Source of the DNA: Gammaproteobacteria bacterium
GTDB lineage: Bacteria; Pseudomonadota; Gammaproteobacteria; UBA4575
DNA: 64,000 nt
Assembly (NCBI GenBank): GCA_028279275.1
Contig: JANQOB010000009.1
Location: 200,781-264,780 of the forward strand
Direction of reading: 5' to 3'
Shown here: piece by piece, positions 807-12,649 of the stretch
Position numbering within the stretch: the first letter of the stretch is position 1
Layout: each line of letters starts with the position of its first letter
Translations under genes and position numbers: made by a program
Notes under the pieces: generated by a model
The model's database searches: none
The model's input: the letters and a program-made list of their open reading frames with translations, nothing else
Told to the model about the DNA's origin: nothing

Positions 807-1289
807 TTATATTCTCAAGTTCCAGGTAATTTCTCTTTGTGCATTGATAATGTCATGCTGTTTTAGCCAGTATTTAACTTCTTCTGCATCATCAGTGAAC
901 CAGTTAAATGCTGAACCCAGTCGAAAACTATATCCCCACAAATCCATATCGTTAAAGGCTTGTTGCCGACAATAGCCTTGTATGTAGTCGGCTAGCAATA
1001 TTTGTAGGTAGCAGGTTGCATTTTCTTCGGCGGCAGTGCCTTGGGCATCCACTTCATCGTTTTCACGTTGGTCTTTCGGCATACAAACATAATGTGAGCT
1101 TTCATGCAGAATAGAGTGTATGGGGGTATCGCCCCGCACAAATAATGTGTTTTTGAGCCTTCCTGCCTCTGGTGCCCCCCAAAAGCTATGCGGTATCTCT
1201 CTGTCAAAATTTAAGCAGTTAATTTCTAAGCCATAGCGCTTCAGGACTGCATTAATTGAGTCAGCTTTCAGGTCTTTGTAATACACCAT
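807..1289 (-). CDS. hypothetical protein with HExxH motif (ILHESSHY); possible small metallohydrolase
   Basis: 160-aa ORF with an HESSH motif and no recognisable family match from memory. Confidence 0.45.
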   Translation of the reverse strand: MVYYKDLKADSINAVLKRYGLEINCLNFDREIPHSFWGAPEAGRLKNTLFVRGDTPIHSILHESSHYVCMPKDQRENDEVDAQGTAAEENATCYLQILLADYIQGYCRQQAFNDMDLWGYSFRLGSAFNWFTDDAEEVKYWLKQHDIINAQREITWNLRI

Positions 1290-2493: not shown

Positions 2494-3603
2494 TCAGCTT
2501 ATATCATTTGCTTCAATTAAGGCTACTAATTCATCGCCGATAAGATCTTTCTTCCAGCTAGATAGAATATCCAGCTCACGTTTTCCGCGAATGAGTTTTT
2601 CAACAACACTACGAGTGGCAAGTAGACTAGGCGCAATATTCAATTGTTCGGCACGTTCGCGTACAAAACTTTGCGCTAATTTAACCAGTTTGCGCTGAGC
2701 ACTATTTAGAGGTCCTATAGTGCTTGTCGTAGGCCAATCATATTCTGGTATTTTTAGTGCTTCGTTAATTTCTAGAATTAATGTTTCAGCATATGGAATA
2801 TGTTCTTCAGTAATAATTTCTAAAGAGCTGAATGCATTGATATCAGTTGGTTGTTCTATGGCTAAGTTACGTAATATTTTATCACTAAGAATCCATCGAC
2901 GAGGTTTATTCTCAGTCATAGCTTGTTGTTCACGCCATTTAGCAAGTTGTTTTAAAATATTTAATTGATTGGAATTAAGTTTTCCTGCACCTTTAACTGT
3001 TTTCCAGACTTTATCAGTATTTATTATATATTTATCAATAGAGGCTAAATTATTGCACTCAAAGTCTGCCCAATGGCTGCGACCATTTTCACCTAATTTA
3101 GTTTTTAAAGACTGATAAATTTCAGCTAAATATTTGACGTCATCAACAGCATATTTTAGTTCTTTACTGGTTAATGGTCTGCGTTCCCAGTTTGTTCTAG
3201 AAAGTGATTTATCAAGTTCAATATTACAAATTTCGGATACTAATTGTGCATAACTTACTTGTTCTCCATAGCCTAGTAGGCTGGCAGCAATTTGAGTATC
3301 AAACATTGGCGTAGGTACTGCATCGAATAAATTGACAAAAATCTCGAGATCTTGGCTAGCCGAATGAAAAATTTTAGTAATAGAGGGTTGATATAGTAAT
3401 TTTTTTAATGAAGATAAGTTACTAATTGCTAAGGTATCTATGCATACTAGTTCCTGTTCGGACGCAATTTGAATTAAACATAAGCTTGGATAGAACGTCT
3501 TTTCGCGTATAAACTCAGTATCCAGTGCAAGCCAATCTACATTGGAGGATGCTGAACAAAATGTTTCTAAATCTCTGGTAGATGTGATTAATTTATATTC
3601 CAT
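2494..3603 (-). CDS. rnd: ribonuclease D
   Basis: MEYKLITSTRDLETFCSASSNVDWLALDTEFIREKTFYPSLCLIQIA matches the E. coli RNase D N-terminus (MNYQMITTDDAL...ALDTEFVRTRTYYPQLGLIQL). Start placed at the internal Met at 3603; the first Met at 3648 would add a non-homologous 15-aa extension. Confidence 0.85.
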   Translation of the reverse strand: MEYKLITSTRDLETFCSASSNVDWLALDTEFIREKTFYPSLCLIQIASEQELVCIDTLAISNLSSLKKLLYQPSITKIFHSASQDLEIFVNLFDAVPTPMFDTQIAASLLGYGEQVSYAQLVSEICNIELDKSLSRTNWERRPLTSKELKYAVDDVKYLAEIYQSLKTKLGENGRSHWADFECNNLASIDKYIINTDKVWKTVKGAGKLNSNQLNILKQLAKWREQQAMTENKPRRWILSDKILRNLAIEQPTDINAFSSLEIITEEHIPYAETLILEINEALKIPEYDWPTTSTIGPLNSAQRKLVKLAQSFVRERAEQLNIAPSLLATRSVVEKLIRGKRELDILSSWKKDLIGDELVALIEANDIS

Positions 3604-3616
3604 AATTATAAACTTC

Positions 3617-4582
3617 GTGAATTTCCTTCGAGTTCGCAAGGCTACCAATATATTAATTTTTTGGCTTGTTCTATCACAAAATAGTGTAACAGCTCAGGAA
3701 TCAATAAAGGAATGGCAAGCACCTTATTTGCAGGAGCATACGCTGGTTGGCAAAGTTTGGGACACTCACAAAGATGACTGGCTAAGTGAGAATCAATTTT
3801 ATTATGAATTGACTAATTATGATTATATTTTGTTAGGTGAAGTGCACAACCATCCTGACCATCATATTCTACAGGCTGAAGTTTTAGATGCTTTAGCAAA
3901 TTTAGGTATAAATCCTAGTGTGGTGATGGAAATGTTAACCATTGAAAGTTGGAAGGATCAACCACTCACTTGGGAAAAAACCGATGAGTTACAAGAACTC
4001 GCAAGTATGTTAAACGACGGCTGGCCGTGGGAATTATATAAACCTGTGTTAAGTTCAATTGTCAGGCATGGGCTTAATTTATATGCAGGAAATATTAGTG
4101 GTGAAGAATTGCAAAATCGTGCATACGAAAATTCATTATTTGACTACTCTTACGCTGAAAAGAATTACTCTTATACAAAAGAAAACTTTGAGACATTAAA
4201 AAAAGATATTATTGATTCTCATTGTGGGTATGCGAATGAAGGTTTGGTAAAATTTATGTCACGTGCGCAAATGCAACGTGATCACATCATGGTGAGTGCA
4301 TTACTGGATAAGAAACAACCTGTCGTTTTTATTGCAGGTAAAGGGCATGTAAGAAATGATTACGCAGTTCCTATGCAGCTGAGAAGAAATTTTAAACAAA
4401 CATCTTACTTATCCGTTGCATACATTCCTGTGCGTGAGGGCATAGAAGATCCACAAGAATATTTGCAGGATTCTCATGATTTATATGACATTCTTTATTT
4501 TACCCCTAGTCATACTACAGAAGATCCGTGTGTGAAATTTCAAAAACAGTTGCAGAACATGCGTCAACGCCAGGATCAATGA
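3617..4582 (+). CDS. ChaN/Tiki-superfamily periplasmic protein (putative haem/iron-related)
   Basis: GTG start at 3617 gives a signal peptide MNFLRVRKATNILIFWLVLSQNSVTAQE. Tiki/ChaN signature positions present: LGEVHNHPDHH (GxxH), ...RDHIMV (RDxxM), AGKGHV (GxxH). Confidence 0.5.
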   Translation: MNFLRVRKATNILIFWLVLSQNSVTAQESIKEWQAPYLQEHTLVGKVWDTHKDDWLSENQFYYELTNYDYILLGEVHNHPDHHILQAEVLDALANLGINPSVVMEMLTIESWKDQPLTWEKTDELQELASMLNDGWPWELYKPVLSSIVRHGLNLYAGNISGEELQNRAYENSLFDYSYAEKNYSYTKENFETLKKDIIDSHCGYANEGLVKFMSRAQMQRDHIMVSALLDKKQPVVFIAGKGHVRNDYAVPMQLRRNFKQTSYLSVAYIPVREGIEDPQEYLQDSHDLYDILYFTPSHTTEDPCVKFQKQLQNMRQRQDQ

Positions 4583-4684
4583 ACAATTTTGACCAATAAT
4601 TTCATACACTTGCTTGCAGTCGTTGGGGTATGTGCGACAATAAGATATAGAAATTTGCTCACCTTACATTTAATAGGACATTAA

Positions 4685-6103
4685 ATGCTCATTGGGCCTG
4701 ATGCTAATTTAAAAGCAAGAATAAAAAGTCTTCGCAATCATATTACAAACGAAAATCCTCTATTAGTGGATGTGGTGGACCATTTTTGTGAGTTGGATAA
4801 GATTGCATATAAACTTGGTATTCTTACAAATAAAGAATCTTACACCACCGATATATCATGGTGGCCACTTATATCTGTGTTAGGGACGTTTTCCGCAGGT
4901 AAGTCGACCTTTATCAATCACTATGTGCAAACCGATTTGCAAAAAACGGGTAATCAAGCCGTCGATGATAAATTTACCGTTATTTGTTTTAGCAGCGATG
5001 ACAAAATAAGAATCTTACCTGGTCTAGCATTAGATGCTGATCCGCGTTTTCCATTCTATCAAATTAGTGAAGAAATTGAAAAAGTATCAACGGGCGAAGG
5101 TTCTCGAATCGATACTTATTTGCAGTTAAAAACTTGTCCATCTGATTTAATTAAAGGAAAAATTTTAATTGATTCACCAGGTTTTGATGCTGATGCACAG
5201 CGCACCTCAACATTACGTATTACGGATCACATCATTAATCTTTCCGATTTAGTGTTGGTGTTGTTTGATTCGCGTCATCCAGAGCCGGGTGCAATGCGTG
5301 ATACTTTGGAACATCTAGTTGCAGGAACAGTACGTCGAAATGACTCAAATAAAGTGTTATTTATTCTCAATCAAATTGATACCACCGCTGCGGAGGATAA
5401 TGCAGAAGAAGTCGTAGCAGCATGGCAGCGTGCGCTCGCGTCAGGAGGTTTGGTGAGTGGACGTTTTTATGCTACCTATAATGAAGAGGCAGCCGTAAAG
5501 ATAGAAGATAAAGCTTTGCGAGAACGTTACCAACGTAAACGCGACCATGACCTAGGTGAAATTTATCAACGCATTTCAGAAGTCAGTGTGGAGCGTGTAT
5601 ATAGAATTATTGGTTCGCTTGAAAATACTGCAAACCAAATTGAAAATAATATTGCACCACAAATTCAGGAAGCAACACGTACATGGGGCAAACGAGTACT
5701 GATGATAGATGCACTAATTTTGATACCTGTTTTCTTGGCTATGCTTATTTACTTTGTTAAACATTTTGGCTACGGAACCGCTTTTGATAGTTTTGGAAAA
5801 ACAGGTGTGATCTGGGCTATTATTCTTGCATTGTTGCTGTTATTTATTATTCATCACTTCATAAGAAATTTTGTGAGCAAATGGGTGGCTAAGTCCTTAC
5901 CTAAAAGAGAGTTAACAGGAAGTGCAAGGGCAGGCTTTTTGCGCAATACGAAATGTTGGCAACCATTATGGCGTCCTTTTATTGTCGGCTGGAATAAACA
6001 CACCCGTCAAAAACTCATCCAGATTCGAGAAGCAGCTGATCGTTTTGTTCAGACATTGAATGATGAATATACTAATCCGTCAGGCGAACACAGGGATATG
6101 TGA
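4685..6103 (+). CDS. membrane-anchored dynamin-like GTPase (bacterial dynamin-like protein family)
   Basis: G1 GTFSAGKST, G3 DSPGF and NQID motifs in an N-terminal dynamin-type GTPase domain. Helical middle region. C-terminal hydrophobic hairpin (LMIDALILIPVFLAMLIYFV ... VIWAIILALLLLFIIHHF). Confidence 0.6.
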   Translation: MLIGPDANLKARIKSLRNHITNENPLLVDVVDHFCELDKIAYKLGILTNKESYTTDISWWPLISVLGTFSAGKSTFINHYVQTDLQKTGNQAVDDKFTVICFSSDDKIRILPGLALDADPRFPFYQISEEIEKVSTGEGSRIDTYLQLKTCPSDLIKGKILIDSPGFDADAQRTSTLRITDHIINLSDLVLVLFDSRHPEPGAMRDTLEHLVAGTVRRNDSNKVLFILNQIDTTAAEDNAEEVVAAWQRALASGGLVSGRFYATYNEEAAVKIEDKALRERYQRKRDHDLGEIYQRISEVSVERVYRIIGSLENTANQIENNIAPQIQEATRTWGKRVLMIDALILIPVFLAMLIYFVKHFGYGTAFDSFGKTGVIWAIILALLLLFIIHHFIRNFVSKWVAKSLPKRELTGSARAGFLRNTKCWQPLWRPFIVGWNKHTRQKLIQIREAADRFVQTLNDEYTNPSGEHRDM

Positions 6104-7626: not shown

Positions 7627-8691
<1,065 letters not shown>

Positions 8692-8803
8692 TTAATTATT
8701 CGAGAGTTAGCGTACTCTATCAGTGGCTAAAATTTTGGGCAAGCCATTAAATGTGCCGCATAAGTGTGGTAGTTTGCCGTTCGTTCATTTATATATAAGT
8801 ACT

Positions 8804-9091
8804 ATGTCGATCACACCAGAAGAAGTTCTAAAAATTGCCAACCTAGCTCGATTGCAAATCAAGCCTGATGAAGTTGAGCAATATGCAAAAGATTTATCCA
8901 ACATTATTCATTTGGTTGAGCAAATGAATGCAGTGGATACTAAAGATATACAGCCGATGGCGCACCCTTTAGATGCAACACAACGTTTGCGCGAAGACGA
9001 AGTCAAAGAAGAAAATCAGCGTGAAAAATTCCAAACAATTGCTCCAGCAGCAGAGCAAGGCCTTTATTTGGTACCAAAAGTAATTGAGTAA
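8804..9091 (+). CDS. gatC: Asp/Glu-tRNA(Asn/Gln) amidotransferase subunit C
   Basis: MSITPEEVLKIANLARLQIKPDEV... is a typical GatC N-terminus. Start taken at the internal ATG at 8804; the track's upstream extension is non-homologous. Confidence 0.9.
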   Translation: MSITPEEVLKIANLARLQIKPDEVEQYAKDLSNIIHLVEQMNAVDTKDIQPMAHPLDATQRLREDEVKEENQREKFQTIAPAAEQGLYLVPKVIE

Positions 9092-12220: not shown

Positions 12221-12649
12221 ATGAAAACATGCCGTCTTATCTATAGAAGTATTGCTGAATCGGAAATACTCGACGAAGATTCGCTGGCACGTTTAGCAAA
12301 TCTCGCTGCCAATAATAATAGAAGGTTTAATATTTGCGGAATATTGGTTTTGTCGAATGGGCGATTTCTTCAAGTGATAGAAGGGCAGTCCAAATTCATT
12401 AATCGATTATATGCAAATATCGTTCAAGATGAGCGTCATCATGATGTTGAGCTAATCAGTTATGAAGAAGTTTCTAAGCCAGAGTTTATTGACTGGAATA
12501 TGAAGTTATTTAGCTTGGATGAGATTGATGAGCATGTTCGCGAATTATTAGTTAATAAATATCCAGTCGTAGACAATAAAATTCAGTTTATTGATGATGC
12601 GGTATTAATGACTTCACTCTTGCTAGATATTAAGCATTTGCAAAAGTAG
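12221..12649 (+). CDS. short BLUF-domain blue-light photoreceptor (BlsA/PixD/BlrB type)
   Basis: LIYRSIA...NICGILVLSNGRFLQVIEGQSKFINRLYANIVQDERHHDVELI matches the BLUF consensus (Y..S, N..G, Q..EG, D.RH). Confidence 0.8.
   Translation: MKTCRLIYRSIAESEILDEDSLARLANLAANNNRRFNICGILVLSNGRFLQVIEGQSKFINRLYANIVQDERHHDVELISYEEVSKPEFIDWNMKLFSLDEIDEHVRELLVNKYPVVDNKIQFIDDAVLMTSLLLDIKHLQK

Follow-up and report, generated by a model that had tools for sequence, protein, structure and literature searches.

The 64-kb window analysed here (that is, the whole stretch of DNA under study) comes from an uncultured gammaproteobacterium and has a G+C content of ~38%; its nearest public relatives are metagenome-assembled genomes (MAGs) labelled Thiotrichales or Gammaproteobacteria. 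At positions 4685-6103 of the forward strand lies a gene, delimited from the list of open reading frames (ORFs), a Pfam Dynamin_N match and full-length homologues, for a 472-aa membrane-anchored dynamin-like protein (hereafter, DLP). We assign this protein, with high confidence, to the EHD-like bacterial members of the dynamin superfamily of nucleoside triphosphatases (NTPases). The gene starts with ATG, with an AGGA located 8 nt upstream, and these start coordinates stand because homologues conserve the N-terminus from residue 8 onward; furthermore, a public contig that has these neighbour genes too carries a gene call for an identical protein. The local gene order is as follows: (i) two genes for c-type cytochromes; (ii) bolA and rnd, both on the reverse strand; (iii) a ChaN/Tiki-family gene and the DLP gene, both on the forward strand; (iv) mreD, mreC and mreB, on the reverse strand; and (v) gatC, gatA and gatB, on the forward strand. 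A first-pass annotation of this DNA had described the DLP gene as standing alone and, indeed, no second dynamin-like gene was found in the 64-kb window. Around the DLP and ChaN/Tiki genes there is no Rfam match and no terminator-like site, and short repeats occur only at chance level.

The dynamin-type G domain (4871-5374, forward strand; residues 63-230 by Pfam, with a fold that extends to about residue 262) is supported by Pfam, AlphaFold2 (AF2) and Foldseek. Its match to Pfam Dynamin_N (PF00350) has an E-value of 1.4e-13 and 51.7 bits (cut-off 27), and covers model positions 1-167 of 168. Three nucleotide-binding motifs are invariant among 21 homologues: (i) G1, or P-loop, LGTFSAGKS (4880-4906; residues 66-74), where G67, S70, G72, K73 and S74 are invariant in 54 sequences; (ii) G3, or switch II, DSPGF (5171-5185; residues 163-167), located from the alignments; and (iii) G4, NQID (5369-5380; residues 229-232), whose Asn and Asp are invariant across the two bacterial subfamilies described below. 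The first-pass annotation had recognised a dynamin-type GTPase by its GTFSAGKST, DSPGF and NQID motifs, and both the Pfam score, above threshold, and the positions of the motifs bear this out. While GTFSAGKS and DSPG are canonical, G4 departs from the dynamin pattern [NT][KR]xD in that Gln replaces the usual Lys or Arg.

The switch-I region, TGNQAVDDKFT (4946-4978; residues 88-98), is also peculiar. D94 and D95 are invariant in the deeper alignment, and V93 and D94 align with T93 and T94 of EHD2, so that the homologous position lacks the usual switch-I Thr. The segment that reads AVDD in the subfamily of the window corresponds to PTDD in the sister group and to P-T93-T94-D in EHD2; the whole TGNQAVDD string, invariant in the window subfamily, aligns with VGPEPTTD of EHD2, and the NQxD form of G4 is likewise invariant. 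Together, both features suggest an unusual arrangement for catalysis or nucleotide recognition. T94 of EHD2 is required for its ATPase activity. EHD proteins keep an NKxD motif and yet use ATP, and motifs alone would not tell GTP from ATP as the substrate of the DLP.

Two further features tie the G domain to EHD proteins. Between switch I and G3 lies an insert, LPGLALDADPRFPFY (5015-5059; residues 111-125), with invariant G113, L116 and P123; the insert, LPGLALDADPRFPF, matches the EHD segment PGNALVVDPxKPF, a likeness that goes beyond the P-loop. After G4, W247 (5423-5425) is invariant in 54 of 54 aligned bacterial sequences, from both subfamilies, and aligns with W238 on helix alpha6 of EHD2, a residue that reportedly lies in the EHD-specific dimer interface.

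The G domain is embedded in helical parts. Upstream of it, an N-terminal helix pair (4703-4816; residues 7-44) is predicted to belong to the helical (stalk) domain, with values of the predicted local distance difference test (pLDDT) of 80-94; it has conserved ENPLLV and ELD motifs and aligns with the helix that precedes the G domain in EHD2. Downstream, a long stalk helix (5510-5695; residues 276-337), homologous to the sister subfamily up to residue 337, runs unbroken into the first transmembrane (TM) segment as part of the AF2 helix 276-360 (pLDDT 86-94). Hydropathy then identifies TM1, VLMIDALILIPVFLAMLIYFVK (5696-5761; residues 338-359), and TM2, VIWAIILALLLLFIIHHFIRNF (5807-5872; residues 375-396), joined by a putatively periplasmic hairpin loop, HFGYGTAFDSFGKTG (5762-5806; residues 360-374), where pLDDT dips to 66. 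The protein ends with a conserved, presumably cytoplasmic helix and an LNDxYTNPSG end motif (5996-6085; residues 438-467; pLDDT 88-94). From TM2 to the end there are 76 residues, and Pfam returns no EH or EF-hand family match in the protein.

The AF2 model built on the 54-sequence alignment (mean pLDDT 81.8; predicted template modelling score 0.78) places helices at residues 7-44, 276-360, 372-402 and 438-462, in the following order: two N-terminal helices, the G domain, an 85-residue helix that becomes TM1, TM2, which continues as a return helix, and a C-terminal helix modelled with confidence. It supersedes a first model, made with 21 close homologues, which had a pLDDT of 71.7 and put IniA marginally above EHD4 in the fold search. 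In agreement with the model, the Kyte-Doolittle profile (19-residue span) peaks at 2.59 (residues ~338-356) and 2.74 (residues 375-393), with 15-18 residues of loop in between. Hence, the helical region, two-helix hydrophobic hairpin and C-terminal tail of the first-pass annotation are all found in the protein. When a strict threshold is applied to 54 homologues from both subfamilies, 44 have exactly two hydrophobic segments, at the same place. Lys and Arg abound on the outer sides of the hairpin (three before, five after), a conserved trait, while the short loop between the segments is either neutral or acidic. By the positive-inside rule, both termini should therefore be cytoplasmic; an in/out/in topology would leave the catalytic part in the cytoplasm and only the ~15-residue loop in the periplasm. 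Judging from the model, the hairpin would sit at the position of the membrane-inserting tip of EHD proteins.

Sequence, profile and predicted fold all point to the EHD ATPases, rather than to BDLP or mitofusin, as the closest solved relatives of the DLP. With phmmer, EHD4 (2e-6) and EHD2 (6e-5) are ahead of the Campylobacter DLP (5owv_C; 0.28), and a family profile search likewise places EHD4 first. With hhalign, the window family matches residues 33-299 of EHD2 with a probability of 96.1% and an E-value of 3.1e-9 over 184 columns. In the Foldseek search with the AF2 model, ranks 1-4 are all EHD4 or EHD2, from 9.6e-12 (5mvf) to 3.8e-11, with a TM-score of 0.49/0.60 across 356 columns for 5mtv; IniA, mitofusin and BDLP come below, and the top-50 PDB matches all belong to the dynamin superfamily. 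In consequence, the "BDLP/mitofusin-like" label of the first-pass annotation has to be replaced by an EHD-like one.

This affinity is stronger in a sister subfamily found in Desulfobacterota, Oligoflexales and other bacteria, whose members have 450-500 aa and the hairpin at the same place. The window DLP detects it with phmmer at about 1e-21, and hhalign aligns both subfamilies over residues 27-337 (99.9% probability; E=8e-32); a Desulfobacter member of the sister group, in turn, matches EHD2 at E=9e-31 (residues 22-294), and the automatic annotation of the Joint Genome Institute (JGI) names several sister-group members "EH domain-containing protein 1". Compared with the sister group, the window subfamily contains additional inserts and its TM loop is longer. 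The window DLP thus represents a gammaproteobacterial branch that has diverged within a large EHD-like family of bacteria. When 1.84 billion representatives were searched exhaustively, full-length relatives of the DLP were retrieved down to ~29% identity. Four full-length relatives of 29-35% identity (P0145, P0156, P0167 and P0171) also possess the TM hairpin and the tail, but their G1, G3 and G4 motifs are degenerate (e.g., GSDTKGKA, NAPD and NKSH); they look like catalytically dead paralogues.

The window DLP shares with EHD1-4/RME-1 the PGxAL..DP..PF insert, a Trp at the W238 position and a helical domain made from the helices that flank the G domain. Nevertheless, eukaryotic EHD proteins carry a C-terminal (in plants, N-terminal) EH domain that the window DLP lacks, and they bind membranes peripherally, by the tip of the helical domain and with no TM segment, whereas the DLP has an integral TM hairpin there; T93 and T94 of EHD2, moreover, are not conserved in it. 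Bacterial proteins of this kind have already been described in silico. Comparative genomics indicated that EHD and sarcalumenin are of bacterial origin and that, in their closest bacterial homologues, the GTPase domain is followed by two paired TM helices; the statement is a comparative-genomic one and gives no function (Schäffer, Iyer, Burroughs and Aravind, 2020; PMC7016017). That description fits the window family, which shares with those dynamins the EHD-closest G domain, the TM pair and the proteobacterial hosts; the window DLP differs from that type in being a divergent branch (~23% identity) with extra inserts, NQxD, AVDD for PTDD and a longer TM loop. A review of EHD proteins from 2026 makes no mention of prokaryotes.

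A second published family has a comparable layout. A preprint on TbMfnL (Tb927.7.2410; UniProt Q57XN3) of Trypanosoma brucei defines the "MfnL" family by a GTPase domain plus two adjacent C-proximal TMs; the family is found in many protists as well as in Proteobacteria, among them a "Gammaproteobacteria bacterium", and TbMfnL needs an intact G1 lysine in order to raise membrane interconnection and network branching (10.1101/2023.06.28.546890). MfnL proteins and the window DLP share the succession of helices, G1-G4 GTPase, coiled coil, two adjacent C-proximal TMs and tail. TbMfnL, the only member with experimental data, is of similar size (62 kDa, including a 41-aa presequence) and its predicted orientation, to the matrix, is like that of the DLP to the cytosol; it differs in having a mitochondrial presequence.

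Far from being rare, the window subfamily is present in at least 564 GTDB species genomes, as established by a scan for two subfamily-specific peptides in one genome per GTDB species, with at least 564 confirmed loci. Among the matches listed, most hosts are sulfur oxidisers of the Gammaproteobacteria (Thiotrichales, Thiothrix, Cocleimonas, Sedimenticola, Thiodiazotropha and other symbionts, Chromatiales and Thiohalomonadaceae), together with Leucothrix and one Magnetococcales MAG. A search started from a relative of high G+C content (P0196) returned four proteins only, one of them in an Azospirillum MAG. The family as a whole comprises thousands of proteins, typically of 450-520 aa, to which NCBI already gives the name "dynamin family protein", and the DLP gene is single in all of the ~80 loci compared. 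The window gene is, thus, a typical member of a common family. The first-pass annotation had considered a compact, lone DLP unusual, a view at odds with its presence in at least 564 species, as single genes of typical length and with an architecture already in print.

As for function, we regard as moderately probable that the DLP is a lone EHD-clade NTPase which, anchored by its inner-membrane hairpin and facing the cytoplasm, remodels inner-membrane invaginations in a nucleotide-driven manner; its mechanistic component, oligomerisation and membrane remodelling, is given roughly even chances. By homology with EHD2/4 and by analogy with TbMfnL, the following steps can be proposed: (i) the hairpin, in place of the EHD tip, would keep the enzyme permanently attached to the inner membrane; (ii) dimers would form via the helix that bears the invariant W247; (iii) binding of nucleotide (GTP or ATP) would promote contacts between G domains and oligomerisation on the cytoplasmic face; (iv) the oligomer would bend, stabilise, join or sever inward invaginations of the inner membrane (necks or tubules); and (v) hydrolysis would reset the oligomer. 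Action would then be exerted on membrane that curves into the cytoplasm, as EHD proteins act on cytosol-facing tubules and TbMfnL acts from the matrix side.

Several points weigh against this proposal. The NQxD form of G4 and the Val-Asp pair at the position of Thr93-Thr94 of EHD2 mean that catalysis or nucleotide choice may differ from those of EHD proteins, and the window subfamily is only ~23% identical to the EHD-like sister group, from which it diverges as a separate branch. We know of no internal membranes in the source organism. The topology was derived from hydropathy and flank charge, by the positive-inside rule. Gene context, in the loci compared for both subfamilies, gives no consistent pointer to a process. 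A relation of the window DLP to TbMfnL is probable, and was drawn from architecture and description only: the bacterial MfnL homologues RTZ59088.1 and WP_093253540.1 are not among the accessions of the named DLP relatives, and a literature search with peptide strings found no tie between the window DLP and TbMfnL. Finally, according to the authors who described TbMfnL, the bacterial members are uncharacterised (10.1101/2023.06.28.546890).

The same architecture could also be read as that of a miniature fusogen of the mitofusin/BDLP type, in which G domains dimerise in trans across two apposed membranes and thereby bring the bilayers to fusion. Fzo1 and mitofusins have, in fact, the same layout, with a TM hairpin that follows a helical bundle; Foldseek matches MFN1/2 at 4e-10 to 1e-9 (TM-score about 0.4) and BDLP at 2e-9, and overexpression of TbMfnL raises mitochondrial interconnection. 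The DLP shares with BDLP, mitofusin, IniA and Campylobacter DLP1-2 the superfamily, helical parts that fold back onto the G domain and a membrane element at the far end. But those proteins are larger (560-700+ aa), often paired and built with two helical bundles, neck and trunk or HD1 and HD2, BDLP and mitofusins having the paddle or TM at the tip of the trunk, while the AF2 model of the DLP has a single, short helical region of ~190 residues after the G domain; TM-scores with BDLP and mitofusin do not exceed 0.47, EHD ranks above both in sequence as well as in fold, and the Campylobacter DLP gives a phmmer value of just 0.28. Furthermore, a protein acting from the cytoplasmic face could fuse membranes in trans only if two inner-membrane surfaces were apposed, and no such arrangement is known here. 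For these reasons, a fusogen is considered unlikely.

A different proposal arises from the gene context in other lineages. In 34 of 80 loci, the gene directly upstream of the DLP, on the same strand and at a median gap of 38.5 nt, encodes a protein of ~200 aa with one TM helix, Met/Ser/Asn-rich repeats and a weak match to DUF948. The usual order of the cluster is: an AcrB-family RND permease; a 211-aa ParA/MinD-like ATPase; a protein with TM and low-complexity parts; the ~200-aa protein; and, last, the DLP (loci L014, L016, L019, L023, L024, L033 and L042, the last from Cocleimonas flava DSM 24830, are among those with the ParA-like cluster). The window subfamily might be a re-tooled EHD-like branch, with an altered nucleotide pocket, that in most lineages forms part of an undescribed module for positioning or remodelling the inner membrane. 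That module may comprise the ParA/MinD-like ATPase and two small membrane proteins, often beside an RND pump, and could, in Gammaproteobacteria that oxidise sulfur, shape invaginations of the kind that houses sulfur globules or internal membranes; the lineage of the window may have kept the NTPase and lost the linkage. None of the genes of the ParA-like cluster is present in the 64-kb window. The Sedimenticola and Thiodiazotropha loci have other DLP neighbours again, and the contexts inspected for the sister subfamily reveal no shared partner, with a DUF2333 gene downstream in Desulfobacter and unrelated genes elsewhere. This joint reading is, in our opinion, quite unlikely as it stands. Regarding the Desulfobacter locus (L082), the DUF2333 protein (436 aa; 7720-9030) is encoded after the sister gene on the same strand, in surroundings with genes for a DUF294 nucleotidyltransferase and a Cache sensor.

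The immediate neighbour of the DLP gene in the window deserves separate attention. The ChaN/Tiki-family gene (3617-4582, forward strand; GTG start; 321 aa) was identified by PF04187 (E=1.1e-30) and by its motifs GEVH, RDHIM and GKGH (residues 74, 221 and 241), and its product matches C. jejuni ChaN (2G5G) at E=2.6e-11. The N-terminus, MNFLRVRKATNILIFWLVLSQNSVTA (predicted signal peptide, 3617-3694), reads as a Sec signal peptide by eye. The first-pass annotation was, then, right in seeing a ChaN/Tiki protein with a signal peptide and the GxxH...RDxxM...GxxH pattern next to the DLP. The start codons of rnd (ATG at 3603, reverse strand) and of the ChaN-like gene (GTG at 3617, forward strand) are just 13 nt apart; therefore, unless one of these starts has been assigned wrongly, each of the divergent promoters must lie within the coding region of the opposite gene.

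Both genes, DLP and ChaN/Tiki, could constitute a functional two-gene unit in which, for instance, the NTPase is coupled to a periplasmic haem-binding or protease-like protein. They are on the same strand, separated by a 102-nt gap; since no terminator is predicted in this gap, co-transcription is possible in the lineage of the window. The pair is also retained in 13-14 related loci, even though the identity of ChaN falls to about 30% in a clade where the DLP is 58-94% identical. Nevertheless, ChaN lies directly upstream of the DLP in only 13 of ~80 loci (within 6 kb in 14), and all those loci belong to one clade that shares an entire 12-gene block, in which rnd-chaN-DLP-mreDCB-gatCAB is conserved. 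Being confined to a single syntenic clade that keeps the whole block, the adjacency is best explained as inherited gene order. The different gene found directly upstream in 34 of 80 loci, the lack of ChaN within 6 kb in most loci and the other neighbours of the sister subfamily are further objections, to which it must be added that, by prediction, the NTPase exposes only ~15 residues to the periplasm. In two loci (L013 and L034), the DLP is tail-to-tail with mreD-mreC-mreB and yet has ParA-like/DUF302 genes upstream instead of ChaN; the junction between DLP and mreDCB is, hence, older than that between DLP and ChaN. In short, the neighbourhood counts rule out ChaN as a conserved partner, and it is probably a lineage-specific neighbour rather than a functional partner of the DLP; a two-gene unit is very improbable. 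The adjacency reported at first is real in the window and does not extend to a general link.

That the DLP is an anti-phage dynamin of the Eleos (LeoA/LeoBC) type is more doubtful still, with only a slight chance of being correct. The LeoA comparison suggested in the first-pass annotation comes down to weak and partial PADLOC matches, LeoA at 1e-6 (residues 160-242 only) and LeoBC at 0.002, and these span only generic segments of the G domain. Eleos has a full-length LeoA with an adjacent LeoBC partner, whereas the partner gene is absent here; besides, the DLP is located in a conserved housekeeping block (rnd, mreBCD, gatCAB) and not in a variable island, and it is a single-copy gene whose vertical conservation extends to hundreds of species. 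A phage origin was also considered and rejected: PHROGs gave nothing meaningful and BFVD gave only generic giant-virus dynamins.

Lastly, a non-dynamin GTPase of translation or ribosome assembly (Era/EngA-like) with incidental hydrophobic segments, as might be thought from JGI records that label some relatives "GTPase Era" and from weak NCBIfam matches to Era and Der, is refuted by the Pfam and NCBIfam scores and by the fold search: models for Era/EngA/YlqF-like GTPases score 15-26 bits against cut-offs of 116-307 (Era, 25.6 bits versus 237; Der, 21 bits versus 307), the DLP has no KH or other RNA-binding domain, and Foldseek with the better AF2 model puts the dynamin superfamily first and translation factors far behind. 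Neither of the two outcomes that the first-pass annotation named as contrary to its reading, a non-dynamin P-loop GTPase or a missing TM hairpin, is thus observed.

Elsewhere in the window, two other genes can be mentioned. At positions 12221-12649 (forward strand) there is a gene for a stand-alone 142-aa BLUF blue-light sensor protein (PF04940; 1.7e-24). At positions 807-1289 (reverse strand), upstream of the two cytochrome c genes, lies a 160-aa ORF without a Pfam match that is conserved and syntenic in 12 related loci (L002-L012 and L017).

For this window, the main outcome is a correction of the first reading: the gene is typical of a common family, and its ChaN neighbour is not a conserved partner. 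The interest that it retains comes from the odd nucleotide-binding motifs, the linkage to a ParA-like cluster in other lineages and the fact that the bacterial members are unstudied. Should the re-tooled branch with its inner-membrane module prove true, its study would also show the job of the ancestor of the eukaryotic EHD, sarcalumenin and MfnL proteins. Among prokaryotic proteins, the DLP family is the one closest to the EHD proteins, which drive endocytic recycling and stabilise caveolae, and it is probably related as well to TbMfnL, a shaper of the inner membrane in trypanosomes. A tractable bacterial model, for which Cocleimonas flava DSM 24830, Thiothrix and Leucothrix are candidate cultivable carriers, could reveal the workings of an EHD-type machine with a permanent anchor, as well as the ancestral job.

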